Below, one piece after another: positions 6,046-61,023 of a stretch of DNA of 64,000 nucleotides. The stretch's first letter is position 1. Every line of letters begins with the position of its first letter. The notes below the pieces were generated by a model. It had not been told where the DNA came from, made no database searches, and was given only the letters and a program-made list of their open reading frames with translations. This stretch comes from a virus (taxonomy: Duplodnaviria > Heunggongvirae > Uroviricota > Caudoviricetes), in the IMG/VR virus record IMGVR_UViG_3300046462_000479, one strand, 5' to 3'. The translations under genes were made by a program, and so were the position numbers.

Positions 6046-6052
6046 GTCACAC
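6037..6052. repeat. 16-bp palindrome (supplies the ATG of the minus-strand gene)
   Basis: Perfect match. Confidence 0.9.
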
Positions 6053-6937
6053 TACTTCGGTGCGGTATCCGTTGCCGTCCCGGTAGAGGGCGTGCCGTTG
6101 TGTGCAGCGGCCGCAAACGATGTAGCCGAGCGGCCTTTCTGGTCCGTCAACGGGTACGACCTGGACCGGATATTCGCGGCCGAGCGTGTCGATCCTGGTT
6201 TCCGTGGAAGGCCTTTCCACGTCTCGTTCGATCTGGGCTCGGACAGCCTCGACTGTTTCGGGCGCAGGCTGGGCTGTTTCTTCTTGGCGCATCCTGTTCC
6301 GGATGGAGCCGACGGTCGGGTGCGACACTCCGCAAACCTCTGCGATGCGACGGTCCGAGCGCGACCAGTCGCGTTGTAGCTCTTTGCGTACGAGCGACTG
6401 TTTCTGCTCTTTGGTCAGTTGGCGTCGGTTCGCGTTCAGCGCGATCGACAGTTCGTATTCGCCTGCCTGGTCGAGGTCGGACACGAACACGACCGGGATC
6501 TCGGTCAAGCCCAACAGTTTGCTGGCCATCAGCCGGTGACGGCCGTCGATCAGCATGTGGCGGCCGATCACGATCGGCACCCTGACGCCTTCGTCCTCGA
6601 TGCTGTTGATCAGCGCCCGCTGTTCTTCTGCGCTTAGGTCAGGCAGCGGCCCCGATTGCAGCTCGATCTCGCTCCTCAGTTCCGCCAGGAGCGACGAGGC
6701 CGAGGATGGCGAGAGCCCTAGCTCGCTGGCGAGGGTAGTCAGGTTGTAGCCATCGCTCATCTCGTCCGCTAAGAGCAGTTTGATCGCCTGCGCCCTCGGG
6801 GACAACGCCTCCAAGTCCACCGTCCGGTAGTTCGTCGAAAACGTAGTCGGGGGTTCGGGAGCCGTTTCTTCCGAGAACTCGTCTGGGGCCGACGTCGACG
6901 GCTCGTTGGCTACATATCCATCGTCCGTACTGCTCAA
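6047..6937 (-). CDS. ParB-like nuclease-domain protein with C-terminal HTH (TTG start)
   Basis: PIVIGRHMLIDGRHRLMASKLLG ParB/Srx core; HTH VSHPTVGSIRNR. Confidence 0.7.
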   Translation of the reverse strand: MSSTDDGYVANEPSTSAPDEFSEETAPEPPTTFSTNYRTVDLEALSPRAQAIKLLLADEMSDGYNLTTLASELGLSPSSASSLLAELRSEIELQSGPLPDLSAEEQRALINSIEDEGVRVPIVIGRHMLIDGRHRLMASKLLGLTEIPVVFVSDLDQAGEYELSIALNANRRQLTKEQKQSLVRKELQRDWSRSDRRIAEVCGVSHPTVGSIRNRMRQEETAQPAPETVEAVRAQIERDVERPSTETRIDTLGREYPVQVVPVDGPERPLGYIVCGRCTQRHALYRDGNGYRTEVV

Positions 6938-9040: not shown

Positions 9041-9056
9041 GTGTGACATGTCACAC
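9041..9056. repeat. 16-bp palindrome
   Basis: Perfect match; the Ku GTG start is 14 nt downstream. Confidence 0.9.
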
Positions 9057-9912
9057 AGGGAGGTTCGCTGTGAAGACGATAATCAACGCGACGGTGCAGT
9101 TCGGGATGGCTGCCATCCCGGTGGCCGTTGCGTCAGCTCTGAACACGACGAACGATCCGTCGTTCAAGCTGTTGCATGAGCCGTGCCATCAGCCGGTGTC
9201 GAGGTCTGGTGGGGGCGGCTCGAACGGTGGCGGCTACTACTGCCATCACTGTGACACGTCTGCGGACGTGACGGTGCACGGTTTCGAGTACGCAAAGGGC
9301 GAGTTCGTCTGGTTCACGGACGCGGAGATGGCGAACGTGAAGCCGGACCGGGAGCCGGTGATCGTGCTGAAGAAGTTCGTGAAGGCGACGTCGATCAAGC
9401 CGGTGATGGTCGACAAGCACTACTTCTTGAAGCCGTCCGAGATGGCAGCGCTGGCTGACCCCTACGGGCAGCTGTACTCGGCGCTGGCGAAGCTGAAGGT
9501 GGCTGGTGTGGGCACGCAGACGCTGTGGGGGAAGGAGCATCCCTGTGCGATCGTGGCCAACCAGGACTACGCCTCAGGTGGGGTGCTGATGATGCTGACG
9601 CTGATGCTGGCAGAGGATCTGGTTGATCCAGACTTTGCTGCTCCGGTGCCGTCGGCGGCCCTGCGTGCGTCTGCGCAGACGGCGGTGGCCGGTCTGATCG
9701 ACGAGTTGAGGCCGGAAGATGACTTGGTGTCGGAGTCGCGTGACCGGACGAAGGACGCGATCACGGCCAAGGTCGAGGGCCGCGAGATCGCTGTCGTGAG
9801 GCCGCAGGAGACGCTGGAACCGGTGATGGATATCGGGCAGGCGTTGCAGCAGGAGATCGCGGCCCGCAAGAAGGCGTCGAAGCCGAAGCCGAAAGCGAGG
9901 GCGAAGGCATGA
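9043..9912 (+). CDS. ku: Ku-like DNA end-binding protein (the likely real start is the GTG at ~9070)
   Basis: FGMAAIPVAV...SFKLLHEPC...YFLKPSE...MLTLMLAEDLVDPDF align with the bacterial Ku core. Confidence 0.85.
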   Translation: MTCHTGRFAVKTIINATVQFGMAAIPVAVASALNTTNDPSFKLLHEPCHQPVSRSGGGGSNGGGYYCHHCDTSADVTVHGFEYAKGEFVWFTDAEMANVKPDREPVIVLKKFVKATSIKPVMVDKHYFLKPSEMAALADPYGQLYSALAKLKVAGVGTQTLWGKEHPCAIVANQDYASGGVLMMLTLMLAEDLVDPDFAAPVPSAALRASAQTAVAGLIDELRPEDDLVSESRDRTKDAITAKVEGREIAVVRPQETLEPVMDIGQALQQEIAARKKASKPKPKARAKA

Positions 9913-13677: not shown

Positions 13678-13770
13678 TGAGTACAACCGATTGGCAAAAC
13701 TGGCTGGTGGCCGCTTCGGCTCTGGTGGTTGTGGTCATCGTGGGAGTAGTGATGTGGCGTGGACATTAAG
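13678..13770 (+). CDS. 30-aa membrane peptide (GTG start)
   Basis: VSTTDWQNWLVAASALVVVVIVGVVMWRGH. Confidence 0.3.
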
Positions 13771-14301
13771 GTGATTTCTGGCGGTCAGATCGGCGCGGAC
13801 ATTGCGGGTTTGCGGGCCGCGCATAAGGTTGGTTTGGAGACGGGCGGATGGATGCCGTACGGGTACCGGACGCTGTTGGAGCCGTTGCCTGTCGATCTGG
13901 TGGAGCGGTACGGGTTGTCTCAGACGACAACGACGGACTATCCGACGCGGACGCAGATGAACGTGGTTGGGTCGGATGCGACGATCCGGTTTGCGCATCA
14001 TTGGTATACGGCGGGGGAGCGGCTGACCCAGAACCTGCTGGTGAAGAACATGCGTCCCCGTTGGGATGTTGAGTTGCGGCAGGTTCCGGTGGAGGGGAAG
14101 CTGCGGCAGATGCGGTGGACGGTGTTCGGGTTCCCGGATCTGCAGGTTGAGGAGTTCGCTGCGGTGACGGCGGAGTGGGTGCGGGACACGTTGCCTGCGG
14201 AGGGCGGCGTGTTGAACGTGGCCGGGAACGCCGACCTGTCGATCGAGACTGTAGTGGAGGAGTTCCTAGTGTTGGTGTTCGAGCGGCTAAAGACAGTGTG
14301 A
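13759..14301 (+). CDS. SLOG-family / putative molybdenum-cofactor-carrier-like (YpsA-like) protein
   Basis: VISGGQIGADIAGLRAAHKVGLETGGWMP...DATIRF. Confidence 0.65.
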   Translation: MDIKVISGGQIGADIAGLRAAHKVGLETGGWMPYGYRTLLEPLPVDLVERYGLSQTTTTDYPTRTQMNVVGSDATIRFAHHWYTAGERLTQNLLVKNMRPRWDVELRQVPVEGKLRQMRWTVFGFPDLQVEEFAAVTAEWVRDTLPAEGGVLNVAGNADLSIETVVEEFLVLVFERLKTV

Positions 14302-15304: not shown

Positions 15305-15489
15305 GGTTTGTGGAGGACGGTGCGGTGATCGTTGTCGCCGTCTGGTGCATGTTCGGGTTCTTTTGGTTCCGTTACAGGAAGAGGAGGCAGCATCCTGACG
15401 CTTTAGAGCACATCCACGAGCTGGAAGAGCAGAACGTGGAGATCGACGAGTTCATCCACAAGATTCAAGACCGGGAGGTTCGGAAATGA
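15301..15489 (+). CDS. small membrane/coiled-coil protein (62 aa), translationally coupled to the SPFH gene
   Basis: Transmembrane segment then an acidic helix. Confidence 0.5.
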   Translation: MRFVEDGAVIVVAVWCMFGFFWFRYRKRRQHPDALEHIHELEEQNVEIDEFIHKIQDREVRK

Positions 15490-16412
15490 CTTGGATAATC
15501 CTGACGATCTTGTTTGCGATCGTCGGCGGCATCTCGTTGCTGGTGTGGTTGTTCGGAGACAAAGCTCCGGAGGGGTCGGATGAGATCAGTCCGAAGGCGT
15601 GGGGTGGGATCGCGACCGTCACCATCGGCGTGATCTGGCTGGTGATGACACTGTTTATGTCGGCGACACAGATCAGCGCCGGTCATGTCGGCGTGAAGTA
15701 TCAGTTCGGGAAGATCGTGGGGACGGTCCCTTCGGGCCTTCATGTTGTGGCACCGTGGATCAACGTGGTGTCGGCAAACACGCAGGTCCAGTCGCATACG
15801 TTCGACAACCTGACGTCGTTCTCGAAGGAGACGCAGGACGTGAACGTGACCGCGACCCTGAACTACAGCGTGAACCCGTCCGACGTGAAGAACTTGTACA
15901 CGACTGTCGGGTCGGACTGGTTCGACAAGCTGGTCGCTACCAGGGTGAACCAGTTCTTCAAGGACGAGACGGTTAAGTTTACTGCCGTAGAAATTGCTCC
16001 ACACCGCGACCAGATCCGCAAGGATGTGCGTTCTGTTCTGCGGTCTGCGTTGGCGCCGTACTCGGTGAACGTGGAGGATCTGCTGATCGACAACATTTCG
16101 TTTAGTCCTGCGTTCACGAACGCGATCCAGGACAAGCAGATCGCGACCCAGCAGGCGTTGGCTGCCCAGAACAGGGTGGCGACGGCGAAGTATAAGGCGC
16201 AGCAGATCATCGAGCAGGCGCAGGGACAGGCGAAGGCGAACCTGTTGAAGCGTCAGACGTTGACGCCGTTGCTAGTGGAGCAGAACGCGATCGACAAGCT
16301 GAACCCGAACGTGAGCGTGATCGTGGTCCCGTCGGGCGCGAACTTCATCCTGCCTGGCCTTGCTGCTGCTGCTGCAGCGTCGACGCCGACGGCTCCGACG
16401 AAGAAGCCGTAG
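15486..16412 (+). CDS. SPFH/band-7 (prohibitin/HflC-like) membrane protein
   Basis: N-terminal transmembrane segment; AGHVGVKYQFGKIVG...GLHVVAPWINVV core; C-terminal coiled coil. Confidence 0.8.
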   Translation: MTWIILTILFAIVGGISLLVWLFGDKAPEGSDEISPKAWGGIATVTIGVIWLVMTLFMSATQISAGHVGVKYQFGKIVGTVPSGLHVVAPWINVVSANTQVQSHTFDNLTSFSKETQDVNVTATLNYSVNPSDVKNLYTTVGSDWFDKLVATRVNQFFKDETVKFTAVEIAPHRDQIRKDVRSVLRSALAPYSVNVEDLLIDNISFSPAFTNAIQDKQIATQQALAAQNRVATAKYKAQQIIEQAQGQAKANLLKRQTLTPLLVEQNAIDKLNPNVSVIVVPSGANFILPGLAAAAAASTPTAPTKKP

Positions 16413-21573: not shown

Positions 21574-21864
21574 ATGGAGGTTCGTGTGCGGTTACGTTTT
21601 CGCAAGAAACCCGTCCTAGATCGGCGGCCGCCGGTAACGGAACGAGAGCTGCAGATCGCTCGCCTCATCGTAAGCGGGATCAGCCGCCAGGAGATCGCTT
21701 CCCGGCTCGGCATCTCAGTCAGCGCGGTTAGCCAAACCAACCGTGCCATCGACGCAAAGCTAGGTCTCCCGTACCGCCCACACGGTCGGCCCACAAAGGC
21801 TGACCGTTTGGCGTACCTAAACGCCCTAGCACAAGCCGTTAGCCAGTGTGACATGTCACACTGA
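21574..21864 (+). CDS. LuxR/GerE-family HTH transcriptional regulator
   Basis: ELQIARLIVSGISRQEIASRLGISVSAVSQTNRAIDAKLG. Confidence 0.8.
   Translation: MEVRVRLRFRKKPVLDRRPPVTERELQIARLIVSGISRQEIASRLGISVSAVSQTNRAIDAKLGLPYRPHGRPTKADRLAYLNALAQAVSQCDMSH
21846..21861. repeat. 16-bp palindrome
   Basis: Perfect match. Confidence 0.9.
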
Positions 21865-21874
21865 AAGGAGGGAG

Positions 21875-22246
21875 ATGACAGCAAAGAAAACTCCGTTCGA
21901 ACGCATCGAGGTGAAAGCAGCCCGAGGCGACTACACGCTGGTAGAGCCGCTCGATCTGATCATCCTCGAATCGCTGCCGAACGAAGGAACGCTGTTCGTC
22001 GGCCTGTACCCGCTCGGCGAGACAGCCGGGAACATCAGCAAGGCGAAGCTGGAAGGAAAGATCCCGGTCAGCGTCGTCGCCCGCAGGCTAGGAACGCTGC
22101 GGCAGCAGGGGCTGGTCGTGAAGAAGCAGGCGATCGGCCAGGGCGCCAACGAGAAGAACGTGGTGTGGCAGCGCACTCCCGCTGCTGTCGCACTCCTAGC
22201 CTCCAAGGAGGGAAAGAATGGCAGCAGCAACAAGAAGTCTGGTTGA
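21875..22246 (+). CDS. putative winged-helix DNA-binding protein (123 aa)
   Basis: ATG after GAAAGGAGGGAG. Confidence 0.45.
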   Translation: MTAKKTPFERIEVKAARGDYTLVEPLDLIILESLPNEGTLFVGLYPLGETAGNISKAKLEGKIPVSVVARRLGTLRQQGLVVKKQAIGQGANEKNVVWQRTPAAVALLASKEGKNGSSNKKSG

Positions 22247-23105
22247 CGAGTTGCACGCCAACTCGGAAATCAAGGAGGTCCAGCTGAGCCAGTTGCAGTC
22301 GGACTTCTCCTACCAGCGCGACACAAACGAGGCGCTGGTCGACGCGATCGCGAACGACTGGGACACCGTCGCATCGGAACTGATCCTTGTCTCCAACCGC
22401 GGGGTCCGCTCCAAGGACGGAGAGATCAAGGGCGGACTGTTCATCGTCAACGGCCAGCATCGCACCAAGGCCGCGCAGAAGCGGAGCATGACCACCATCT
22501 GGGCTCGCGTCATCGACCTGCGCAAGGTCAAGGACCCGGGAGCGATGGAGGCCGGGTTCCGGCTGAAGACGAACAAGCGGATCAGCGACCGCCCACTGGA
22601 ACGGTTCAAGGCGCAGGTGCGTTCCGGTGACGAGGACTCGCTGGCGATCGTGAAGCTGCTCGCCGGATTCGACACGGAGATCAACGCGTCGCCGAGCAGC
22701 GAGGTCGGCATCAACTGCGTATCCACCGTCGAGGGCCTGTACGCGCTCGACAACGGCTCGCTGCTGAGCGACACGCTGGAAGTGGTCCGAGACACGTGGC
22801 GGCACGTCGGCGGCGACTTCACCAAGGCGTCCCTGTTGAAGGGCGTCTGCTGGTTCATCGAGAAGCACGCCGAGGAGTCCGACCGGACCCGGCTCGTGTC
22901 CAAGCTGCAGGGAGTCGGCATCACCGCCCTGGAATCTCGGGCCCGCACCATCGGCCTGACCATGGGCGGCAGCATGTGGATGAACTACTACCGGGCCATC
23001 GTCGATCTGTACAACGAGCAGCTGCGCGAGAAGAACCGGCTGCAGTGGATGCTGCGCGGCAGCCAGCGCGTCGACCGTGGCGGCGGCCAGCAGCGGGCCG
23101 CCTAG
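22218..23105 (+). CDS. ParB-like / DGQHR-domain (DndB/DpdB-like) protein
   Basis: LILVSNRG...GGLFIVNGQHRTKAAQK. Confidence 0.65.
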   Translation: MAAATRSLVDELHANSEIKEVQLSQLQSDFSYQRDTNEALVDAIANDWDTVASELILVSNRGVRSKDGEIKGGLFIVNGQHRTKAAQKRSMTTIWARVIDLRKVKDPGAMEAGFRLKTNKRISDRPLERFKAQVRSGDEDSLAIVKLLAGFDTEINASPSSEVGINCVSTVEGLYALDNGSLLSDTLEVVRDTWRHVGGDFTKASLLKGVCWFIEKHAEESDRTRLVSKLQGVGITALESRARTIGLTMGGSMWMNYYRAIVDLYNEQLREKNRLQWMLRGSQRVDRGGGQQRAA

Positions 23106-23209
23106 TCCGATACCGAACGTCAACAAAAAAGGAGGTACGCCAGACGGACCCAGTTCCGACCAGCCGACGCGTGAGGTTCCGCGTCGGGGAAGCCTGACCT
23201 GGAGGAGAG

Positions 23210-23620
23210 TTGCGCTTACGTATCTGGACAGCGGCCCTGTCCGCGGCGTTCTTCGCTGGGACACCCGCAGCAGCACAACTGTTACCGGCAGCACCACCAG
23301 CACATCATCACCGGCACCACCAGCAACTCTGGCACGCGCCGAAGTGGTGGCTACCTGAAGCCACCTGCATCCACGACCACGAGGGAGCGTGGACCGACTC
23401 CGGCTACTACGGAGGAGGACTGCAGTTCCTCGTTTCCACGTGGAACCGGGCCGCAGCATGGCACCGCACGAAACACGACGAGATCCCGTTCGTCTCATCG
23501 ACGGCAGAAATAGGACGGCTGCCCCCACGCATCCAGCTGCACGCGGCTATCCGCATCTGGCTGCAAGACCATCGCAGCTGGCATGAGTGGGGGACAGCCG
23601 GTATGTGCGGGCTGGGTTAG
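23210..23620 (+). CDS. secreted Rpf-like (resuscitation-promoting-factor / transglycosylase-like) protein, TTG start
   Basis: Signal peptide; EGAWTDSGYYGGGLQFLVSTWNRAA...WGTAGMCGL. Confidence 0.65.
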   Translation: MRLRIWTAALSAAFFAGTPAAAQLLPAAPPAHHHRHHQQLWHAPKWWLPEATCIHDHEGAWTDSGYYGGGLQFLVSTWNRAAAWHRTKHDEIPFVSSTAEIGRLPPRIQLHAAIRIWLQDHRSWHEWGTAGMCGLG

Positions 23621-23635
23621 CGTGACATGTCACAC
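23620..23635. repeat. palindrome variant GCGTGACATGTCACAC
   Basis: One mismatch. Confidence 0.85.
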
Positions 23636-23652: not shown

Positions 23653-23883
23653 ATGGAAACCATAATCGTCCCCGAGAGACCGCACCGGCTCACGGATGGG
23701 CTCCATCATCTGGTGCCGGTCCGCCGCAAGCAGAAGACGATCGTGATCGAGGCGGACCCGGTAGAGGAGGCCCTTAGCAAGATGGTCGAAGAGGCCAGAC
23801 AGGGGCACGTGATCGCGGGCTCGTTCCATGCGGGCTCGAATCTCCACTGCACGCTCGGCCTGATCGAGCACGTAACCAGCTAA
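23653..23883 (+). CDS. hypothetical protein (76 aa)
   Basis: SD GAAGGGAGAGCAATG. Confidence 0.5.
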   Translation: METIIVPERPHRLTDGLHHLVPVRRKQKTIVIEADPVEEALSKMVEEARQGHVIAGSFHAGSNLHCTLGLIEHVTS

Positions 23884-23888
23884 GTCTG

Positions 23889-24272
23889 ATGCTGGGCTAC
23901 GTTCAGCCCTTCCTCATCCAACGCCACTCGGACGCCATGCCGCTCTGGCCGTGGATCTGGATGGCCTTCTGCTTAATGCTCGTCGCCGTCGTGTCGGTCG
24001 GCCTACTAGCGGCCATGTTGGAGACGAGGAGCGCCAGGAAGAAGTTGAAGAACAGATTCAATTGGCGGAGTTCGGACAGGTGGACTCCGGTCCAGAAGGA
24101 GCTGGTCGAGCGGCTGTACGCCGCAATGCCTCCGCAGTTCCAATTTGTAGCGTCCGGGGCGCTGGCGGAGAAGGCGGCAGTAATCATGAATTACAACGAC
24201 GCGTACGGGCAGTGTGAGGCCGTTGACTGGTATGAGCGCGCACTTGTGGGAGTGCGAACCAAACAAGACTAG
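23889..24272 (+). CDS. membrane protein (127 aa)
   Basis: Transmembrane segment WPWIWMAFCLMLVAVVSVGLLAAML. Confidence 0.5.
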   Translation: MLGYVQPFLIQRHSDAMPLWPWIWMAFCLMLVAVVSVGLLAAMLETRSARKKLKNRFNWRSSDRWTPVQKELVERLYAAMPPQFQFVASGALAEKAAVIMNYNDAYGQCEAVDWYERALVGVRTKQD

Positions 24273-24287
24273 TGTGACATGTCACGC
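24272..24287. repeat. palindrome variant ...CACGC
   Basis: One mismatch. Confidence 0.85.
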
Positions 24288-24343: not shown

Positions 24344-25834
24344 ATGGCAGCCGTAGCACAATCGGAACAAAGCAAGATCGAGGAGCGTCTCCGCGAATCG
24401 TTGCGGATGCTCGGCGGCGCAGCGTTCAAGGACGAGGACGTGATCAGCCGCGGCAAGCAGATGATCATCCCGGAACGGATGAGCTACCAGGACGCAGTCG
24501 ACTTCCTGGAGAAGCGGATCGCGGAAGAGGAACAGAAGACCTACTACGAGCGGACGTTCCCGTACCGGCCGATGGACGGCGCCTACTGCACCTGGGTGGC
24601 GTTGAAGGAACACTTCGGCTCGGTGTCGCACCGCTCGCAGACGGTGCAGACGATGTTCGGGCCGAAGAAGGCACCCCCGGCCATGATCGACATTCCCGTC
24701 GGACCGGACCGGATCGAGCAGGTGCCGTGGGGCAACTTCGAGATCCCGTTCCTGCCCGGAGTGGTGCTGGAACTCGGCTCGAAGTTCGACCCGGAGTTCG
24801 GACAGCTGTTCCACATCCAGGGGCAGGGCCCGAAGAAGTACCGCAACGAGGTCGAGGGCATCTTCAAGCTCGTCGCCCGGCAGCTGGCAACCTCGTCGAT
24901 CTACCGCGGCCAGGCGATCACCGGCAAGGAGACGCCCGACTTCCTCGACCTGTCCGGCATCGACCCGAAGAAGGTCACCTACAGCGAGGAGGTTCTCGCG
25001 CAGCTGGGCGCGAACGTGTGGAGCCTGATCCGCTACTCGGACGCGTTCCGTCTGGAAGGGCTGCCGTTGAAGCGGGCCGTCCTTCTCCACGGCCCGTACG
25101 GGACCGGCAAGACGCTGGCAGCGATGCTGACCGCACAGGAGTGCGTCCGCCACGAGTGGACGTTCCTGTACGCACGGCCGGGACGTGACGATCTCAACTT
25201 CGTCATGCAGACCGCCCGCCTGTACCAGCCCGCCTGCGTGTTCTTCGAGGACATGGACGTGGTTGCCGACCCCGGCACCGCGGAAGGCGACGACATCACC
25301 CGGCTGCTCGACCTGTTCGACGGCCTCACCGCCAAGAGCACCGAGATCCAGGTGATCCTGACCACCAACCACGTCGAGAAGATCCACAAGGGCATGACCC
25401 GGCCCGGCCGGTTGGACGCGATCATCGAGATCGGCAGCCTGGATGGGGCCGGAATCGAGAAGCTGATCAAGGCGGTCGTTCCGCACGACCAGCTGTCCGA
25501 CAACATCGACTGGGACAAGGTCGTCGCAGCCATGTCGGACAGCGACGGCGTGCCGGACTTCGTGCCCGCCTTCGTCAAGGAGGCGGCAGACCGGACACGT
25601 CGCTACGCGATCGCCCGCACCGGAGGCGACACCAGCGACCTGGAACTGACCACCGACGACTTCGTGCACGCAGCCACCGGCCTCCGGCCGCACCTGGACC
25701 TGATGCACGGAGCGAAGGACATGGTCGAGCGTGACCCGCTGTCGGTCGTGGTCAAGCGCGACGTCGGCCAGGAGATGGAGGTCAAGCTCCGCGAGCTGAT
25801 CCATCCCAAGTTCCTCGTCGAGGACGAAGCCTAA
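24344..25834 (+). CDS. AAA+ ATPase with a ~250-aa N-terminal domain
   Basis: Walker A GPYGTGKT, Walker B VFFEDMD, TTNHVEK...RPGRLD. Confidence 0.85.
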   Translation: MAAVAQSEQSKIEERLRESLRMLGGAAFKDEDVISRGKQMIIPERMSYQDAVDFLEKRIAEEEQKTYYERTFPYRPMDGAYCTWVALKEHFGSVSHRSQTVQTMFGPKKAPPAMIDIPVGPDRIEQVPWGNFEIPFLPGVVLELGSKFDPEFGQLFHIQGQGPKKYRNEVEGIFKLVARQLATSSIYRGQAITGKETPDFLDLSGIDPKKVTYSEEVLAQLGANVWSLIRYSDAFRLEGLPLKRAVLLHGPYGTGKTLAAMLTAQECVRHEWTFLYARPGRDDLNFVMQTARLYQPACVFFEDMDVVADPGTAEGDDITRLLDLFDGLTAKSTEIQVILTTNHVEKIHKGMTRPGRLDAIIEIGSLDGAGIEKLIKAVVPHDQLSDNIDWDKVVAAMSDSDGVPDFVPAFVKEAADRTRRYAIARTGGDTSDLELTTDDFVHAATGLRPHLDLMHGAKDMVERDPLSVVVKRDVGQEMEVKLRELIHPKFLVEDEA

Positions 25835-29783: not shown

Positions 29784-30047
29784 TTACGGGGCCGGAGGAG
29801 TGATGCTTGCCAGCTCCGTTGCCACGGCCGCCGCAGCAGTCTGGACCGACTGGTCCTCAGCGGTCAGGTCCGCGGCGGGCTTCGCCGCAATTGCCGCGTT
29901 CACAGCGTCGATCAGCGTGTTGATAGCCGCGACGAGCGCAGCAAGATCGGTGTCGAACGTAGCCTGGTCAATCGCCATCTTGTCTAGCCTCCCTATGATC
30001 TGGTCGAGTTTGTCTTTGATCTGGTCGAATGGGTCCCATCTGCTCAT
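29784..30047 (-). CDS. Ala-rich hypothetical protein (87 aa)
   Basis: ORF track. Confidence 0.45.
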   Translation of the reverse strand: MSRWDPFDQIKDKLDQIIGRLDKMAIDQATFDTDLAALVAAINTLIDAVNAAIAAKPAADLTAEDQSVQTAAAAVATELASITPPAP

Positions 30048-30244
30048 TTGGTAGGTGGGACCTCACGGTTAAGAATCGGTGCCAGCCAGCCGCCAAAAGC
30101 CGAAATGACGCCGACAAGCGCGGCCGCTTCCGGCAACGTCACATGCACATGCATGAGCGACAGCAGCCAGACGGCGACCCCGGCACCAGTGCTGCCGAGC
30201 GCGCCGCCTACAACCTTGGGATGGAAGTCGGTGAAGCTGTTCAT
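30044..30244 (-). CDS. holin-like small membrane protein (two transmembrane segments, 66 aa)
   Basis: GGALGSTGAGVAVWLLSL...LVGVISAFGGWLAPIL. Confidence 0.45.
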   Translation of the reverse strand: MNSFTDFHPKVVGGALGSTGAGVAVWLLSLMHVHVTLPEAAALVGVISAFGGWLAPILNREVPPTK

Positions 30245-30814: not shown

Positions 30815-32826
30815 GGCGTGAAGTAGGTGACGCCGTCAAACTTCGAGTACCAGGAGCGAGGCGACAGGTCCAGGTTCATCGTCCACTGCGGCACGTTCGC
30901 GTAGCCGACACTGACCTGGTTGTGGATGCCCTCGACGAAGAACTGTGTTGCTTTGAAGCCGCCGCCGCCAGGGTTCGTTTCCGTCACGATCACAATGTCT
31001 CCTATCTCGACTCCGGTCACGAACTTCCACCAGGCCGGACCCAGGCTGTCGTTCGGTGGGATCGTCTGGAAGGTGATCTTCGAGATCATCTCGACCGGGT
31101 TCTTGTAGTTGTCCACGAAATACTGGCCGAAGATCGCTGTCTCGTTCACGCCCGACCCGTTCGAGTCTGATGCGGGCTTGTTCACTCCGTCACCTCCCGG
31201 CTGTGTGGCCGGGAACGGAGAGCCGACAGGGCCGACGATGCTGGACGTGATCAGCAGATCGGGGATGGACAGAACACGAGTCCCGTACTGATTAATCGAC
31301 GTCGGATCGGTCTTCAGGTTTGCTGAAATCAGATTCTGCACGATGTTGTACGGCATACACAAGCAGGCGTTGATCACGTTCTTCAGGTCCAACGTCCACT
31401 CGATGTCGCTGATCGGCGCATACCCGAACGTCTGTGCGGCGTTCCTGTCTCCCACGTTCCAGACGATGATCTGTTTCGATCCCGGCTGCGGATTCGCGTT
31501 CACGTCACGCGTCTCGTAGTTGGCCGGGTTCAGTCGTGACCAGCGTCCACGGAACGCGACCTGTCCCCACCTGTCCATGAATACGTTTGCGACGTTCGGG
31601 AACTCGGCGTCCGCAGCGTCCTGCATGACCGCAAGCGTCGATGTCTGCGGGTTATAGACCGTCTGTTGCATGTCCACGTTGCCGGTGAAGATGTTCCTCC
31701 ACGAGGCGGGCCATCCTGCATCGTTCAGGACCGCATTAATGCGATCGTCGACTTGTTGGGCGACATAGGTGGTGGTACCAGTCGAATCCGGGACAACCTC
31801 GGCACGGGAGAGAAGCTCGAACCCGTCAGTCAGGTTGACGACGGGAAGCATCAGCCGTGCCGCCTGGTCGGCGAACGTCCAGTCCCACGACTCCACAAAC
31901 CCGGTGAACATGTCATGGTAGGAGCCGTCGACGGGGTTCTGGACAGTGATTTTTGCCTGGGCCAGCGGGCCGATGTTTCCGAAGAATGGACCGCTCTTAT
32001 TGGTCGGGTCGAACACGCCGGTCGGGTCTTCTAGTGTGATCGTGGCCGTCCCGGCCTGCGTCTTGTCCAGCTCGTACTGGCGTCCTCGATCGGACGTCCA
32101 GGCCGTCACCACGTTCTGGTTGTTCGGAAACGACGCGTTCGGATACGAGGGATCGTCGAGACGAACCCAGACAGGAGACGTCTCATACGTGCTGCTCGTA
32201 AAAGCGATACGGATACCTTCACCGGCCGACGCACCGCTCGCACCAGAAATGCCGCTAAAACCTATACCAGCAGACCCGTTAGAAAACAGTCTCGCCTTGA
32301 AAGCTAGACTTGTATTTGCGCTCGGGTAAAGGATCGCTGACGTCGTCGGGTTGGAACCGAAACTAAGATCGCTGATCGTCAGCGTCTTGGTTCCTCCGTC
32401 ACCGACAACCGTCGGCAGGGTGCCGGACACGTCGGCGGAGAACTTGTAGGTGATGCCGTTGACGCTCGGGAACTGGACGCTCACCACTCCCGTCCCCCCG
32501 GACCCGCCGTCATAGTTCCAGACGACACCCACATATCCCTGATCTACATTGCCGGAAGTAGTCCCGTACTTAAACACGATGATGGAAATAAAGAGGAGAG
32601 GAGCTGCTGTCCTTTGCACATCCGAGAAGAACGTCTGCCCTGACGTCAGCCCGCCTACCGTAGTGATATGCAACGTCAGGTTCCCGGCACCATCAGACGT
32701 CCCGGAAACAGTTGCAGAGTTCGGGTCGCCCGAAAACAAATTATATGACGTTGTTGCCGCCAGACCAGTACACGTAGCGATGATGTCCGTGGAGCCGTTA
32801 TAGCTCCAAGAAACAGCGGCGGCCAT
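30811..32826 (-). CDS. minor tail protein (distal tail / Dit-like, 671 aa)
   Basis: Immediately downstream of the tape measure gene. Confidence 0.6.
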   Translation of the reverse strand: MAAAVSWSYNGSTDIIATCTGLAATTSYNLFSGDPNSATVSGTSDGAGNLTLHITTVGGLTSGQTFFSDVQRTAAPLLFISIIVFKYGTTSGNVDQGYVGVVWNYDGGSGGTGVVSVQFPSVNGITYKFSADVSGTLPTVVGDGGTKTLTISDLSFGSNPTTSAILYPSANTSLAFKARLFSNGSAGIGFSGISGASGASAGEGIRIAFTSSTYETSPVWVRLDDPSYPNASFPNNQNVVTAWTSDRGRQYELDKTQAGTATITLEDPTGVFDPTNKSGPFFGNIGPLAQAKITVQNPVDGSYHDMFTGFVESWDWTFADQAARLMLPVVNLTDGFELLSRAEVVPDSTGTTTYVAQQVDDRINAVLNDAGWPASWRNIFTGNVDMQQTVYNPQTSTLAVMQDAADAEFPNVANVFMDRWGQVAFRGRWSRLNPANYETRDVNANPQPGSKQIIVWNVGDRNAAQTFGYAPISDIEWTLDLKNVINACLCMPYNIVQNLISANLKTDPTSINQYGTRVLSIPDLLITSSIVGPVGSPFPATQPGGDGVNKPASDSNGSGVNETAIFGQYFVDNYKNPVEMISKITFQTIPPNDSLGPAWWKFVTGVEIGDIVIVTETNPGGGGFKATQFFVEGIHNQVSVGYANVPQWTMNLDLSPRSWYSKFDGVTYFTP

Positions 32827-35800
32827 TAGTTCAGCCCGACACTACGTCCGGCGTTAGGGCCGCGTGTTTGTGTCGCGTTTCGGCGAGAGTTACGGATCAG
32901 TTTCGCGCGCAGCTCTCGGGCCAGCTGGTCGGCGTTCACGCTGCTGCTGTTGATCACGATGTCGCCGTGAACGTGGATGCCGCCGCTGTCATACGACTGA
33001 GGATGACGAACGTTCGGATGCTTGTGTGTCGGCACCGGGTGCGGCAAACCCGTGATCGCCCCGATGTTCGAGTGCGGACCCACCCCGGACGGCAGCGCGA
33101 TCCCGGCAGCAGCACCGCCAGTCGGAACCCGGAAATGGTGGGCCTGCGCCTGAGACAGGTTCGCTTCCAACAGCTTCTTCTGCGCATACGACAGACCAGG
33201 AATACGGTTGACCAGGCTCTCGATCGACACCGGCCGGTAGTTCGTCCCCATCCCCGACTGGCCCTTCAGGGTGTTGTTGATGTTCTGCAGCCACGACGTA
33301 ATCTTGTCCTTCTGCGCCGTCGACAACGTGATGTTTTCCTTGCGGGCGAGCGCCAGCACCTCGTGGATCTTCCGCAGCTCCTTCAACGTCGTCGAGTCGA
33401 ACCGGAACCCGGTACCGGTGATCTGCTTCATCAGCTTCGCCAGCGACTCGTTCGCCAGCTGGGACCTGGTGATGCCGAGCGCGGCAGCGGTCACACCAAT
33501 GTCGTGCTTGCGGCCGCCAAGGAGATGCTCCAAGAAGTCGAGCATGATCTTCCGCTCGCGGCCTGCGATCGTCAGCTGCGCGGCCACCGACTTCCCGCTG
33601 CCGATGCCGAGGATCTTGTCGATCGCCAACGAACCAGGAGACCCGGCGCCACCGTGGATCCGTTTCTGTGTCGCCTCGATCTGCTTCGCCAACGCCAGCT
33701 CTTCCCGCTTCTGCGCGAGCAGCTGCTTCCCGGTATACGTCTGCGCCTTCAGCCAATTAAGCGCCTTCTCCTGCTGCGCCAGCAGCGCCTTGTTCGCAGC
33801 CAGCTGCTGTGCCGCAGTACCCGACCCGCCCGCCAACGCGGCCCGCTGACCGGCATTCGACAACGCCGCCTGCATACCAGCAGGAAGCAGACCCAGCCCG
33901 CCACCGCCGCCGGTCGTGGGGACACTGCCAGCCTTAGGAATGTTCCCGGCACCAGCGTTGTTGTTGAGCGTTTTGTACGTGTTTATCTGATCAATGATCG
34001 ACGCCTTCTGCGACGACGTCAGGCCAGGCATTCTGAGCAGGTTGTTGTAGTAGGCGATCGCTCGTTTGTTGGCCCGCACATCGTCAGCCGTGTTTGGGCT
34101 TCCTTGCGCTCGCGAGACAGCCAACTGAATGCTCCCTGGCAGAGTGAGCATCCCCATCGTGAACCGGTCCACAGCGGGCTGGTCCCCTGTTCCGCGTCCC
34201 GGTCCGCCGGGAGCGCCTCCTCCACCACGCGTCGGATGCGTTGCCGCCCCTGAAAGGGTGGTCGGCGTAACGGCTCCGCTCTGACTGACTGTCACATACC
34301 CGGTGTTCTTGCTCCAGTAGACGCCGTTCCCGACAGACTTAAGACCAAGATCTTTGATCGACTGCTTCGCTGATGCCGACGGTTCCGTGAACGCCATCGC
34401 CGCACCCAAGGCACCGGCACCAATAAGTCCAAGCATCGGACCAAACCTTGTCGCTAGAGCCGTAAGAGCCGGGAACAACGTCCCGGTGATCGTTGCCGCC
34501 AGCCCGGTAGTGGCACCAGCGGCAGTCGTTTCCGCGCCCGCCATCCCGTAGAACAGTCCGGTCGTTGCTGTCGTGGCTCGGCCGACCCCGAGGATGCTTC
34601 CGAGCAGCCCAGCACCAGAGTTGAGGCCCATCATTACCGTCACAGACCGGAGCGCGCTCCGCATCAGGTAGAGCGCAAACACCCAGCCCAACAGCGTCTT
34701 CGCCAACGGAATCCGCAGGATCTGATTGATCATCCACACGAACACTCTCAGGGCGCCAGCAACAACCTGGGAGACGGCCGCCTCGACCTTAATGAACGCC
34801 AGCGCAGTCTGTTCCAGTACAGGCAGCAGGACATTGAGGAGACCGAAAAGCGCCTTGATTTGCGCAAGATGCGCCTCGAACAGGCTGTGGAGTGCGGCCT
34901 GGGTTGTGGTCAGGTTAAGCCATGTTCTGATTTTCCCGATGATGTCGGCCAACATGCCGATGAACTGTGTCCCGAAGCCGACGGCAGGCTTAAACACCGC
35001 GAAGAGGGCGCCGCCGATCTGTTTGAACAGGTTCAGCCACACGTCGAACATGTGGATCAGCGACTCGACGACATGGTGGACCTGCCCCCAGTTCTGTGGA
35101 GAGTTCCACTTCGTGAAGAAATGGTCGAGGCCCTTGATCAGGCCGCCGGTGTGCTGGGCTGCAGCGTCGAGCACTTTCATGAACAACTCGAACGCCTGCG
35201 TCAGCATGTGGATCGACTGCGGCAGCCGCTTCTGGAAGATCTTCTCCAAGTCCGTGAAGATGCCCAGACCACCCTGCGGACCCGCTTGCTGCAGCCAAGA
35301 GAACAACGGCTGCAGGCCCTTCTGGATGATCTTCGTGTTCTCGGCGGCGAACTTCCCGATCGTCGGCAAGAACTTCTCGCCGACCAACATGATCTGCCGG
35401 ATAATGTCCGCACCCGTTTTCGCGGCCGGGGCCGTCAGCTTGTGGAACATGTCTCCGAACGCGACCGACGTCTGCGCCGCAGCCATATACGCTTTCCGTA
35501 CCCGCGGATCGAACTCGGCCATCGCCGCGTTAAGCTGCTTCTGCGCAGTAACAGCCTGCCTGCTGTTCTTCCCGTAGGTCGCGATCGCAACGTCAAGCTT
35601 GTCCATCGCCTGCGCGGTCGTCGTAATGCCATGCAACGCCTGGCCCGTACCAGCAAGATCGGTACCCATCCCCACCGCCGTGGTAGCCAAAGCGCCACCA
35701 GCAAGAAGTCCGCCGCCGAGCAGAGCACCGACACCCGACCCAGCAATGCCGAGCGTGCTAGTCAGCGCCCGCTCCGCACCGAACCCGGCCAGGCCTCCCA

Positions 35801-36740
35801 GCGACCCGAACCGTGCCATGCCAGGGAACAGCCGTCGGCCTCTGCCACCGAAGCCACCGCGTCCGAATCCGAACATCCACGGGACAGGGATACCGCCGCC
35901 GCCACCCCAGCCCATGGCCTGCAAGAAGCCGGGCTGGTTATCTCCGCCGCGGCCGCCGATCAACCCGAGAAGGCCGCCCATGAAGTTGTGCGAAGGATCG
36001 TTCGGGTCGATGCCGCGCGACCTGAGATACCGCACTGCGCCAGCAACATCACCGCCGCCCACCTGGCTCATACGCAGGATCGGGTTCGGAGGCAAAGGAC
36101 CTTTGCCGAACGAGCCTACGTCCCGACGGATCCGTTCCGCATACTGCGCGTCCTGCGCGAAGATCCTGTTCTGTAGCAGCAGGTTGGCCGGGTTATAAGG
36201 AACCATCTCCCGACCGGGAGGCACTCCGCCACCGGCAGGCGCTCCGCCTGCCGTGAAGATCCTGTTCGGACGTGTCACCTGCTGCCATGCCGACCCGTTC
36301 CAGATCAGGTCCTGTGACGTGGGGGGCAGGAACGTGCCCAGCGACGACCGGGCACGCCCGACACCCATCGGCATCCCCGAACCACCGTATTCTCCTCTGG
36401 CCCGCCCAACGAGATCGAGCGCTACTTTCGCCTCGACGGCTGCGTTGCGGATGTCATTGATTTGGTCGACTTCCTGCCTGGACGCAAGCGCGTTCTGCGC
36501 GACAGCCGATTGAGGAACGTACAAGTCGGACATCTTGGAACGGACATCGCTGACCGTGTCCATGGTGGACACGAGGGCGCTGTCGATGATCTTCAGGTTG
36601 CCTTTGACCTGAGCGACAGCCCGCTCGGGAAGCTCCATATCTCTCAGGTCGGTATTCAGCCCAGCCATGGCTCGCCGGGCGTCGTCGATTGCCTTCTCGG
36701 TTGCGGCAAGCTGCGTGTCGGCAGCCTTCATCCCTGCCAT
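32826..36740 (-). CDS. tape measure protein (1304 aa)
   Basis: Size; coiled-coil N-terminus; Gly-rich segments; follows G/GT. Confidence 0.85.
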   Translation of the reverse strand: MAGMKAADTQLAATEKAIDDARRAMAGLNTDLRDMELPERAVAQVKGNLKIIDSALVSTMDTVSDVRSKMSDLYVPQSAVAQNALASRQEVDQINDIRNAAVEAKVALDLVGRARGEYGGSGMPMGVGRARSSLGTFLPPTSQDLIWNGSAWQQVTRPNRIFTAGGAPAGGGVPPGREMVPYNPANLLLQNRIFAQDAQYAERIRRDVGSFGKGPLPPNPILRMSQVGGGDVAGAVRYLRSRGIDPNDPSHNFMGGLLGLIGGRGGDNQPGFLQAMGWGGGGGIPVPWMFGFGRGGFGGRGRRLFPGMARFGSLGGLAGFGAERALTSTLGIAGSGVGALLGGGLLAGGALATTAVGMGTDLAGTGQALHGITTTAQAMDKLDVAIATYGKNSRQAVTAQKQLNAAMAEFDPRVRKAYMAAAQTSVAFGDMFHKLTAPAAKTGADIIRQIMLVGEKFLPTIGKFAAENTKIIQKGLQPLFSWLQQAGPQGGLGIFTDLEKIFQKRLPQSIHMLTQAFELFMKVLDAAAQHTGGLIKGLDHFFTKWNSPQNWGQVHHVVESLIHMFDVWLNLFKQIGGALFAVFKPAVGFGTQFIGMLADIIGKIRTWLNLTTTQAALHSLFEAHLAQIKALFGLLNVLLPVLEQTALAFIKVEAAVSQVVAGALRVFVWMINQILRIPLAKTLLGWVFALYLMRSALRSVTVMMGLNSGAGLLGSILGVGRATTATTGLFYGMAGAETTAAGATTGLAATITGTLFPALTALATRFGPMLGLIGAGALGAAMAFTEPSASAKQSIKDLGLKSVGNGVYWSKNTGYVTVSQSGAVTPTTLSGAATHPTRGGGGAPGGPGRGTGDQPAVDRFTMGMLTLPGSIQLAVSRAQGSPNTADDVRANKRAIAYYNNLLRMPGLTSSQKASIIDQINTYKTLNNNAGAGNIPKAGSVPTTGGGGGLGLLPAGMQAALSNAGQRAALAGGSGTAAQQLAANKALLAQQEKALNWLKAQTYTGKQLLAQKREELALAKQIEATQKRIHGGAGSPGSLAIDKILGIGSGKSVAAQLTIAGRERKIMLDFLEHLLGGRKHDIGVTAAALGITRSQLANESLAKLMKQITGTGFRFDSTTLKELRKIHEVLALARKENITLSTAQKDKITSWLQNINNTLKGQSGMGTNYRPVSIESLVNRIPGLSYAQKKLLEANLSQAQAHHFRVPTGGAAAGIALPSGVGPHSNIGAITGLPHPVPTHKHPNVRHPQSYDSGGIHVHGDIVINSSSVNADQLARELRAKLIRNSRRNATQTRGPNAGRSVGLN

Positions 36741-40648: not shown

Positions 40649-40956
40649 GTCACCTCTAGGACACCGGATAGCAGCACCGGGATTTCCGGGCTGTCTGTGA
40701 CTTTCACGTACACATCATAGAATCCGGCTGGGAGGACGACGGCTCCGCCGGGGCCGACCAGGCAGCGGGCGTAGTAGATGCCGTTCAGGGTGCTCCACGA
40801 TCCCGCGTAGAACGCGGTCGGTTCGGCTGCGGGGTCGGGGAACGCGAACGTGACTGTGTCTCCGGTCGGGTCGCCTCCGGTTGCTTCCGAGATGGGAACC
40901 CTCACGTATTGCAGCGAGGCGCTGTTGATCTGTAGGTCGGCGAGGCTGGCTGTCAT
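40645..40956 (-). CDS. hypothetical Ig-like protein (103 aa)
   Basis: Internal ATG; 4-nt overlap with the upstream gene. Confidence 0.5.
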   Translation of the reverse strand: MTASLADLQINSASLQYVRVPISEATGGDPTGDTVTFAFPDPAAEPTAFYAGSWSTLNGIYYARCLVGPGGAVVLPAGFYDVYVKVTDSPEIPVLLSGVLEVT

Positions 40957-45796: not shown

Positions 45797-46366
45797 CTAA
45801 AGCATTCCGTAGAGGGTGGCGACGCTTCCAGCAACGAAGTTCGCTCCGCCCGCGGCGACGAGTTGGAGGTCGTTGATGGCGGCGGTGTTCCGCCAGAGGC
45901 CGGTGAGGAGGCCGATGAAGCAGTCGGCCAGCGTCGATGAGAGGTAGCAGGTGTTCCCGAACACGTTCTTGAAGTTGCCGACGGTCGCGTAGCCGGGGAC
46001 GACAAGCTCGCCTGTCCCGAACCGGTTCGCGGGGGACGCGCCACCGCCTTCGAGGACAGCCCACGCGGCCGTCTGCGCTACGCCGCCCGCACCGGACACC
46101 GCGCTCGTCCCTCCGGCGATCATCTCTTCGCGGTCGTAGTTCGCGCCCGAGTCGCCGTTGAAACGGATCAGCGTCTCGGACGCATTCGTGCTACCCCCGT
46201 CGTCGCGGAGGTAGGTGACGCAGCGGAGCGCCCGGAACGTCTGCGGGATGTTCGCGAACTCGATAGTCGGGGTGGCGACACTGATGACGCGCGAGTCGAT
46301 CTCGGTGAGCCCGGACAGGACAGTTGCGCCTGCCGCCGACCCAGGAGTGATGAACACGCTTGACAT
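45797..46366 (-). CDS. hypothetical structural protein (189 aa)
   Basis: ORF track. Confidence 0.5.
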   Translation of the reverse strand: MSSVFITPGSAAGATVLSGLTEIDSRVISVATPTIEFANIPQTFRALRCVTYLRDDGGSTNASETLIRFNGDSGANYDREEMIAGGTSAVSGAGGVAQTAAWAVLEGGGASPANRFGTGELVVPGYATVGNFKNVFGNTCYLSSTLADCFIGLLTGLWRNTAAINDLQLVAAGGANFVAGSVATLYGML

Positions 46367-46391
46367 GCGGGGAGAGTATCGCTGCTTACGG

Positions 46392-48631: not shown

Positions 48632-48635
48632 GGGT

Positions 48636-48980
48636 CTAGGTCGCCTGTTCTGTGGTTTCGATGATCAGTGGACCTTCGTAGCCTTGCGCCTGGTAGTCGT
48701 ACTTGTAGACCTCGACCGTGTAGGTGCCCGCTACGGGCGCGGACGCGGTGATCGTCCCGCACGTGTGAACACCCGCAACTGTCCATCTCTGCTCGGTCAG
48801 GTCGGGCGCAACAACGACAACGTCAAGGTAACGGCCTCCAAAGTTGCAGAGGGTGATGTCGAACGTTCCCCCGGCCACGGTCGGGTTGGGGCTAGTGGTG
48901 ACGGTCGCGTTCGTCGCGTCCGCGGACGCGACGACCACCGCGGCAACTAAAGCCGCGCAGATGAGCAGAAGCTTCTTCAC
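48636..48980 (-). CDS. small secreted Ig-like protein (signal peptide; 114 aa)
   Basis: MKKLLLICAALVAAVVVASA signal peptide. Confidence 0.55.
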   Translation of the reverse strand: MKKLLLICAALVAAVVVASADATNATVTTSPNPTVAGGTFDITLCNFGGRYLDVVVVAPDLTEQRWTVAGVHTCGTITASAPVAGTYTVEVYKYDYQAQGYEGPLIIETTEQAT

Positions 48981-48989
48981 GGTTCCTCC

Positions 48990-60697: not shown

Positions 60698-61023
60698 GCG
60701 CTGTGAGTATCGCCCTCCGGGCGGATGCTGGTGATCACGCGGACCAGTCCCCCGTGTTTATCGACCAGATACATGCGTTTCAGGTCGGCCGTCCAGACGA
60801 ATCTCATCGTCCGGTCGCGTTCGTTGCCGTTGCGGCGGCCGCGAACACGGTTGCGGCTGGATACCGCCCAGGACGGCTGCCGGGTCGAGTAGCGGCCCGA
60901 GTCGAGCGCCTCGTTTACTTCCTGGGCAACAAGCAGACGCAGGTAGCTGCCGGACGCCATCTCTTCCGGGAACCGCTCCCGAAACTGGTCGACGGCATGG
61001 TGGGTTACCTCAACCGGCCTCAT
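60694..61023 (-). CDS. hypothetical protein (109 aa)
   Basis: ORF track. Confidence 0.45.
   Translation of the reverse strand: MRPVEVTHHAVDQFRERFPEEMASGSYLRLLVAQEVNEALDSGRYSTRQPSWAVSSRNRVRGRRNGNERDRTMRFVWTADLKRMYLVDKHGGLVRVITSIRPEGDTHSA

Follow-up and report, generated by a model that had tools for sequence, protein, structure and literature searches.

A Divergent Rpf-like Gene Coding for a Predicted Exported Protein in the Non-Structural Gene Block of an Actinophage-like Genome Fragment

We analysed a stretch of 64,000 nucleotides (hereafter the window) of the IMG/VR virus record IMGVR_UViG_3300046462_000479 (Caudoviricetes), whose plus strand encodes at positions 23210..23620 an Rpf-like (transglycosylase-like) protein of 136 amino acids (aa), including its predicted signal peptide. 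This open reading frame (ORF) figures in the ORF list of the window and is supported by homologues and by a family hidden Markov model (HMM). It initiates with TTG at 23210, the only in-frame start found 5′ of the conserved domain, and terminates with TAG (23618-23620). A Shine-Dalgarno-like GGAGGAG sequence, read directly in the DNA, is found 2 nt before the TTG (23201..23207, +). The GC content at third codon positions (GC3) is 0.69 as compared to 0.76-0.90 in the neighbouring ORFs, yet the ORF can be considered real because homologues exist. The product has the layout MRLRIWTAALSAAFFAGTPAAA/QLLPAAPPAHHHRHHQQLWHAPKWWLPEATCIHDHEGAWTDSGYYGGGLQFLVSTWNR...SWHEWGTAGMCGLG (the slash marks the predicted cleavage) and is composed of four parts: two arginines, a 13-residue alanine-rich hydrophobic core, an AxA-type site and a histidine-rich stretch followed by the domain. 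The histidine-rich linker HHHRHH (aa 32-37; 23303..23320, +) lies at the predicted mature amino-terminus, and HHHK(P)H stretches resembling it are also found in the close homologues P0001 and P0004. The lysozyme-like, Rpf-fold catalytic domain, supported by structure prediction and Foldseek comparison, spans aa 44-136 (23339..23617, +). The string EGAWTDSGYYGGGLQFLVSTW...W...CGL, quoted as a transglycosylase-like signature in an initial annotation of this DNA, is indeed present in the product, at E58-W78, W127 and C133-G134-L135.

Homology to Rpf is evident at the level of the protein family. A search of 5.8 billion proteins retrieved 13 metagenomic homologues (E-values from 9e-37 to 2e-8), 11 of them carrying the PF06737 domain, and the family HMM recognises the window protein with an E-value of 1.4e-44. 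The profile built from the homologue alignment matches the structures of RpfB, RpfE and RpfC in the PDB (2.7e-10 to 1.9e-9), the sole further PDB match being lysozyme at E=0.61. When 1.84 billion cluster representatives were searched exhaustively with a profile, 203 proteins were identified at E <1e-10, most of them 75-250 aa long with the domain at the carboxyl-terminus; the clade thus comprises at least 203 clusters at 50% identity. Comparison by hhalign of the 135-sequence family alignment with a small alignment of canonical Rpf proteins gave a probability of 99.4% (E 2.8e-21). The homologues also match the NCBIfam Rpf and RpfC models (1e-9 to 1e-13; 17-50 bits), whose equivalog cut-off of 180-200 bits is reached neither by them nor by the window protein. 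On sequence grounds the protein is a relative within the Rpf superfamily and not an orthologue of RpfA-E. Among 50,697 phage genomes no match was found by tblastn with the protein or by megablast with 3 kb of DNA.

The AlphaFold2 model of aa 40-136, computed with the 135-sequence alignment, has a predicted local distance difference test score (pLDDT) of 95.1 and a predicted template modelling score of 0.87. The seven top Foldseek matches in the PDB are all RpfB or RpfE, with a probability of up to 1.00 and a template modelling (TM) score of 0.66 when normalised to the query and of 0.77 when normalised to the target. Ranked after them are Slt70-type lytic transglycosylases, the phi6 lysin and lysozyme. 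In BFVD the highest-ranking fold matches comprise the ‘hydrolase’ of a Streptomyces phage, several small ‘Transglycosylase-like’ proteins from uncultured phages and the Rpf domain of the Barnyard tape measure protein. A first model, obtained with 14 sequences and with the disordered amino-terminus kept, had weak fold matches (pLDDT 74.5, TM 0.35) and was superseded by the domain-only model. Family-level profile, hhalign and fold matches therefore agree on the Rpf/transglycosylase-like domain proposed in the initial annotation, and the similarity returned by the profile searches is real.

The alignment of 135 sequences defines the hallmark C53-[IV]-H55-x-x-E58-G-x-W61 ... Y67-x-G69-G70-x-Q72-F73-x-x-S-T77-W78 ... 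Q109 ... W127-x-T129-A-x-x-C133-G-L, and the motif C-[IV]-H-x-x-E-G-x-W ... W-x-E-W-G-T-A-x-x-C-G-L is common to the 203 or more clusters. The window protein retains all near-invariant residues (E58, C53, C133, W61, Y67, G69, G70, Q72, T77, W78, Q109 and W127). Glu58 (codon 23381..23383, +), the proposed catalytic acid, is conserved in 133 of 135 sequences and occupies the carboxyl-terminal end of helix 1, which in the model ends exactly at this residue. The end of helix 1 is where the catalytic glutamate of lysozyme-like folds (c-type lysozyme, Slt70, Rpf) is found. Cys53 (codon 23366..23368, +), the first of only two cysteines, is present in 131/131 ungapped sequences and its proposed disulfide partner Cys133 (codon 23606..23608, +) in 135/135. 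His55 is near-invariant (116/132 sequences), and position 56 of the alignment is highly variable. The geometry of this region differs from that of canonical Rpf proteins, a departure that the initial annotation overlooked. Cys53 is located five residues before the glutamate, whereas the canonical Rpf cysteine is one residue before it, a shift of four residues (one helical turn); Cys133 is six residues past the invariant Trp127, whereas its canonical counterpart is three residues past it, a shift of three residues in the direction of the carboxyl-terminus. The spacing from the glutamate to the tryptophan is two residues shorter than in canonical Rpf. Such a coordinated shift of both cysteines is the pattern expected of a disulfide that has moved one turn along helix 1, and we infer that a C53-C133 disulfide relocated in this way may form.

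A Sec signal peptide is predicted by sequence inspection at aa 1-22 (23210..23275, +), with cleavage before Q23. In this heuristic reading the segments MRLR, IWTAALSAAFFAG and TPAAA have the n/h/c layout of such peptides. A hydrophobic amino-terminal stretch that begins with positive charge, and in most cases has an AxA motif, is found in 88 of the 121 family members that have at least 30 residues before the domain. Some of the ‘short’ database entries are start-codon miscalls: the ORF of contig L001 extends upstream to a TTG and begins with MRRGSKATVALAFLALLTPIAASA/Q (slash as above), a clear signal peptide. The relative encoded by the syntenic contig L015 begins with a short hydrophobic leader. 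C53 and C133 are the only cysteines of the window protein, which fits an extracytoplasmic, disulfide-bonded domain. Rpf-like proteins have been described as secreted or membrane-associated (PMC1084345). Export of the window protein is thus probable, and the initial proposal of a separate secreted protein agrees with the signal-peptide-like amino-terminus in so far as this heuristic reading holds.

The catalytic domains of the M. tuberculosis RpfB, RpfE and RpfC proteins (1XSF, 3EO5, 4EMN, 4CGE, 4OW1; PF06737) are the best profile and fold matches of the window protein. They have in common the core W-x-x-(N)TGNGY-x-GG-x-QF-x-x-(S/G)TW, followed by an (E)Q-x-x-x-A helix and a late invariant tryptophan, as well as a glutamate near the end of helix 1, a cysteine in helix 1 and another in the carboxyl-terminal tail (which in the window protein would link the two) and secretion, predicted for the window protein. 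They differ in helix 1, where the window clade has C-I-H-x-x-E-G-x-W and the M. tuberculosis proteins C-E-x-G-G-N-W, and in the tail cysteine, which is found in W-G-T-A-G-M-C as opposed to W-P-V-C. The near-invariant H55 of the clade has no counterpart in the M. tuberculosis proteins and, unlike these, the window protein carries no accessory DUF348, G5 or LysM domain.

The occurrence of an Rpf domain in a phage genome is not exceptional. A tblastn search of the phage collection with the RpfB domain yielded 237 records, most of them within tape measure proteins encoded by Mycobacterium and Gordonia phages, so that the initial statement that Rpf-like motifs of mycobacteriophages are usually embedded in the tape measure protein is valid for most canonical domains. 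The tape measure Rpf motif was reportedly described by Pedulla in 2003 and by Piuri and Hatfull in 2006. This Rpf-like ‘motif 1’ is found in mycobacteriophage tape measure proteins, as in Barnyard gp33 and in many cluster members (PMC1796659). It is a domain of the same superfamily encoded by actinophages, and Barnyard is among the fold matches listed above. The tape measure motif is virion-borne, has no export signal peptide and is presumed to function when the DNA is injected, whereas the window domain is encoded separately and predicted to be exported.

The stand-alone state, which the initial annotation presented as unusual, has precedents. Free-standing proteins with a signal peptide and an Rpf domain are encoded by Rhodococcus phage Peregrin (gp44, 188 aa), by Streptomyces phage BRock (gp43, annotated as ‘transglycosylase’, 188 aa, near an annotated endolysin) and by Rhodococcus phage REQ1 (Orf63, 358 aa, after DNA polymerase/primase). 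BRock gp43 ends with a LysM-like stretch, and REQ1 Orf63 has a further M23-like stretch and a carboxyl-terminal LysM-like one (both read by eye). The three proteins resemble that of the window in being phage-encoded, free-standing, provided with a signal peptide and encoded outside the tape measure gene. REQ1 Orf63 and Peregrin gp44 are, like the window gene, located among non-structural genes (DNA polymerase/primase, ThyX, methyltransferase). Unlike the window protein, all three have the canonical C-E-S-G-G-N-W sequence and are 57-65% identical to RpfB; none of them was found by tblastn with the window protein. The small BFVD proteins are also stand-alone (109-157 aa): ‘Transglycosylase-like’ proteins of uncultured Caudovirales in UniProt/BFVD, such as A0A6J7WTY5 and A0A6J7X893, and the ‘hydrolase’ of Streptomyces phage Gilson match with a Foldseek probability of 0.9-1.0 and are 18-24% identical to the window protein in the structural alignment. 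To our knowledge none of these BFVD proteins has been characterised, and no paper characterising any free-standing phage Rpf was found in our literature search. Because the Peregrin, BRock and REQ1 copies are already sequenced, novelty cannot be claimed for a secreted phage Rpf on the ground of its being stand-alone.

We consider it likely that the window gene codes for a Sec-exported, disulfide-stabilised Rpf-type peptidoglycan glycosidase that is produced from the non-structural gene block and acts on the cell wall outside the membrane. Translation would initiate at the TTG behind its strong Shine-Dalgarno sequence and the signal peptide would direct the protein across the membrane of an infected or lysogenic actinobacterial cell. 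Cleavage past AAA22 would release a protein of ~114 aa made of the histidine-rich tail and the 90-aa lysozyme-like domain. Outside the cytoplasm Cys53 of helix 1 and Cys133 of the carboxyl-terminal tail would form a disulfide, and Glu58 at the end of helix 1 would act as the general acid that cleaves the MurNAc-GlcNAc bonds (N-acetylmuramic acid to N-acetylglucosamine) of peptidoglycan. Rpf-type enzymes are weak lysins. As the protein has no wall-binding module either, local remodelling of the wall is expected in preference to bulk lysis. This activity might prime the wall before holin-triggered lysis, or might keep the wall of the host growing and out of dormancy, to the benefit of phage replication; the evidence does not separate the two. 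A role in infection is made plausible by the up-regulation of four of the six host rpf genes throughout infection by Rhodococcus phage WC1, which its authors viewed as possibly a phage-driven prevention of dormancy (PMC10986025), and by the modulation of phage infectivity by mycobacterial RpfA and RpfB according to a 2025 meeting report (PMC12908700).

Several observations weigh against this interpretation. The window protein alone scores only 15 bits (E=0.042) against PF06737 ‘Transglycosylase-like’, for a gathering score of 27 bits, and gave no match in scans of PHROGs or of NCBIfam, including its models NF046106 (Rpf) and NF046107 (RpfC). Its TGNG loop is shortened and ~10 residues are inserted after the STW sequence, which accounts for the sub-threshold Pfam score. 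The E-values of the Foldseek matches to Rpf are weak (0.15-0.6). The hhalign alignment begins at G59 and so omits the helix that carries the glutamate and the cysteine, while the gapless HMMER alignment sets RpfB E292 opposite the variable position 56. Equivalence of E58 to RpfB E292 is thus suggested by its conservation and its position in the helix and not by superposition. Asp56, to which the HMMER alignment would assign the catalytic role, was rejected as its position is highly variable and E58 is invariant. The hydrophobicity of the predicted signal peptide is weak, with a mean Kyte-Doolittle value of 1.5 in the best 13-residue segment. Finally, no promoter or terminator adjoining the gene was found in a sigma-70 promoter and terminator scan of the 21.5-24.5 kb region.

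The position of the gene in its lineage and in more distant viruses bears on its role. In the window it is preceded by a gene coding for a DUF6551 protein of 295 aa (22218..23105, +; PF20188, 4e-13) and followed, further downstream, by one coding for an AAA-type ATPase of 496 aa (24344..25834, +; Pfam AAA). The IMG/VR contigs L015 and L016, which belong to relatives of this phage, have the same order: a homologue of the gene at 21848, the DUF6551 gene (62% amino acid identity), the Rpf-like gene (49%) and the AAA ATPase gene (50%). This conserved order indicates that the Rpf-like gene is a stable, vertically inherited component of the non-structural block of the lineage. Two small ORFs (23653-23883 and 23889-24272, both +), the 127-aa one having a strong amino-terminal transmembrane helix, separate the Rpf-like gene from the ATPase gene in the window; they are absent from L015 and L016 and have no family matches. 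The clade as a whole was found on at least 24 IMG/VR contigs. Wherever the viral context could be read the Rpf-like gene is located among genes for RecT/ERF, SbcCD, DNA methylase, primase, HNH and integrase proteins, and never among structural genes. In two unrelated viral contigs, L001 (10336-10827) and L005 (5079-5666), a DZR (double-zinc-ribbon) gene that is not found in the window lies directly 3′ of the Rpf-like gene; its Pfam marks are weak or faint and its product may be a recurrent partner of the Rpf-like gene.

A tyrosine integrase is encoded no more than one or two genes away from the Rpf-like gene in eight of 16 distinct contexts other than the window (L003, L004, L009, L017, L021, L023, L032 and L033), usually directly upstream and co-oriented, with a Phage_integrase domain and mostly an additional SAM-like amino-terminal domain. 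This adjacency suggests a cargo or lysogeny-associated position. The gene might accordingly code for a lysogenic-conversion or ‘wake-up’ factor, expressed from the prophage or at a low level and secreted, that promotes, in the manner of bacterial Rpf, the growth or resuscitation of the lysogen or of dormant neighbouring hosts and so provides more metabolically active cells in which the phage can be sustained. Lysogeny-expressed morons classically occupy such a place next to an integrase, the Rpf-like gene often has an intergenic gap of 100-400 bp ahead of it, and the GC3 of the window ORF is below that of its neighbours. A passage of PMC1796659, citing Mukamolova 2006, states that the muralytic activity of Rpf drives resuscitation. 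There is also a possible source of capture, as two clade members are encoded in an apparently cellular context on metagenome-assembled-genome contigs of uncultured Actinobacteria (Actinomycetota): L011 (8001-8273), with EF-G, sigma-70, PEP mutase and periplasmic binding protein genes, and L010 (6103-6480), with MFS transporter and DUF4143 ATPase genes. Phages may have captured the clade from uncultured Actinomycetota; the two contexts rule out that it is exclusively viral. Against such a factor, no integrase or repressor is recognisable in the window, and the gene forms part, as do its neighbours, of a long series of co-oriented ORFs among which a palindrome recurs (see below). Its position in L015 and L016 is conserved vertically together with genes of DNA-metabolism type, unlike that of a recent insertion. 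For the window gene we thus regard the lysogeny-associated role as unlikely and favour the exported wall-remodelling glycosidase.

The window is a fragment of an actinophage-like genome that is very divergent; its GC content is 59-67% in most 2-kb segments. It contains no tRNA gene that could hint at the host and no terminase gene, which implies that the genome continues beyond it. The mycobacteriophage setting was assumed by the initial annotation: uncultivated viral contigs are the nearest relatives, and the best cultured matches, for the AAA ATPase at 24344..25834, are only ~40% identical (Mycobacteroides prophages and Gordonia phages). A plus-strand block of non-structural genes (~1.1-28.6 kb) codes for Ku, a PD-(D/E)XK nuclease, cpYpsA, an SPFH protein, DUF6745 and DUF6551 proteins and an AAA ATPase. 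The Rpf-like gene lies inside this block, which converges on a minus-strand block of structural genes (28.6-64 kb) coding for the portal, a His-phosphatase/S78 protease fusion, a capsid-like protein and the tail terminator, together with glycosyltransferases, methyltransferases and ORFs of 1513 and 1304 aa. Assignment of the Rpf-like gene to an ‘early’ region was overstated, being based on position alone.

Other non-structural features of the left arm are genes for a C5 methylase (412-1104, -) and a ParB-N/HTH protein (6047-6937, -), both near the left end. Among the genes listed above, the Ku homologue is encoded at 9043-9912 (+; 1e-23), cpYpsA, a circularly permuted YpsA SLOG protein, at 13759-14301 (+; 2e-20) and the membrane SPFH/Band-7 protein at 15486-16412 (+; 3e-30). 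In the structural arm the fusion ORF, 734 aa long (57027-59231, -) and located immediately downstream of the portal gene, joins a His_Phos_1 domain (7e-28) to an XkdF-type S78 prohead protease (6e-25), an unusual composition for a capsid maturation protease. The 1513-aa ORF (40953-45494, -), which has no Pfam or PHROG match, is found between the head genes and the tail terminator in a region of raised GC content (0.65-0.67 versus ~0.61). It is adjoined, at 45797-50024 (-), by ORFs of 452, 344 and 314 aa and by one of 114 aa (48636-48980) in which a signal peptide is clearly recognisable. Five glycosyltransferase-like and two methyltransferase-like genes of this arm (50024-51916, -; 61010-63742, -) are reminiscent of virion glycosylation cassettes; contig L003 carries a comparable group just ahead of its terminase gene.

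The plus-strand block is punctuated by the 12-bp perfect palindrome GTGACATGTCAC, of which 26 copies (22 exact and four with one mismatch) are found in the window for 0.24 expected. They span positions 234-59253 (e.g., 1387-1398, 2819-2830, 21848-21859, 23622-23633 and 24274-24285) and share an 18-bp conserved core, AG[T/C]GTGACATGTCAC[A/G]C[T]. The left 27.4 kb, with the non-structural genes, contains 23 of the 26 copies. Most are located near an ORF boundary, commonly just past a stop codon and before the next Shine-Dalgarno sequence and start. One copy (23622..23633) begins 2 nt past the stop codon of the Rpf-like gene and marks the gene boundary, while none is found between the upstream DUF6551 gene and the Rpf-like ORF. 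In several copies the variable flanks are complementary and extend the perfect palindrome to up to 28 bp (predicted folding free energy, dG, of ~-21 kcal/mol). The sequence may act as a stoperator-like site bound by a dimeric regulator, or as a hairpin between genes that serves RNA processing or termination. None of the 38 loci compared, L015 and L016 among them, contains it. A different candidate, an 8-bp inverted repeat in the leader of the Rpf-like gene (23164-23187), was rejected as a regulatory hairpin since the leader folds no better than shuffled sequence (z = 0.57).

The tape measure and lysis functions of the phage were examined for their relation to the Rpf-like gene. The putative tape measure protein of 1304 aa (32826..36740, -) is assigned by its size and its position downstream of the tail terminator, and has no match in Pfam, PHROGs or a tblastn search of phages. 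Neither the family HMM nor the RpfB domain revealed a second Rpf-like copy in a six-frame scan of the window, the 1304-aa ORF included, and no other peptidoglycan-hydrolase motif was detected in this ORF with Pfam or PHROGs; the initial annotation had likewise seen no obvious motif in it. Genes of lysis proteins were searched for with Pfam (60 window ORFs), PHROGs (20), PDB sequence comparison (6) and tblastn (3), a set that covered all larger ORFs and those adjoining the holin candidate described below, and no endolysin, lysin B, amidase, peptidase, GH19 or GH25 protein was recognised in the window by these means. The only lysis-like signal is a weak holin candidate, a hydrophobic membrane protein of 66 aa with one transmembrane-like segment at aa 40-58 (30044..30244, -; phrog_9284, E=0.0022). 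The initial description of the Rpf-like gene as far from the lysis genes could thus not be confirmed.

The Rpf-like protein carries the only recognisable muralytic domain in the 64 kb, a finding of little weight given that matches are lacking for most proteins of this phage. It might on this account be the actual endolysin, a lysin exported by a signal peptide or of the signal-anchor-release (SAR) type, accumulating outside the membrane and unleashed when the holin candidate collapses the membrane potential; its Ala/Gly/Ser-rich, weakly hydrophobic amino-terminus would resemble SAR domains. This is highly improbable, as the AxA motif of the protein typifies signal peptides that are cleaved, the lytic activity of Rpf domains is weak, the gene is located 6.5 kb from the holin candidate on the opposite strand, BRock has a canonical stand-alone Rpf protein besides its annotated endolysin, a phage so divergent could encode a lysin that goes unrecognised, and part of the genome lies outside the window, which lacks the terminase gene that lysis cassettes often flank.

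The window protein is a divergent form of a known domain family of which stand-alone phage copies were already sequenced. What is new is the divergent clade with its shifted cysteine/glutamate helix and conserved histidine, the size and largely viral distribution of this clade and its recurrent integrase-proximal position. The shifted Cys/Glu/His helix is a natural experiment that can show which features the Rpf fold requires in order to be active. Small secreted enzymes of this kind, if active, might be used as reagents for resuscitation or culturing and as adjuvants of phage therapy. Rpf proteins control the exit from dormancy in Actinomycetota, including M. tuberculosis, and phage replication is generally impossible in dormant cells. 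It can be speculated that the C-x-H-x-x-E clade is a phage-adapted ‘anti-dormancy’ factor, carried beside the integrase by temperate actinophages and secreted from lysogens or infected cells, that would wake dormancy-prone soil Actinomycetota, or prevent their dormancy, and so turn non-permissive dormant cells into productive hosts. We hold this to be quite unlikely; if true, the relocated disulfide and the conserved histidine would reflect a specificity or a regulation unlike those of host Rpf proteins. The existence of a sizeable, apparently exported Rpf-like clade in non-structural and integrase-proximal modules suggests that phages manipulate the remodelling of the host wall, and possibly host dormancy, outside the virion, a use of the domain other than that of the tape measure motif.

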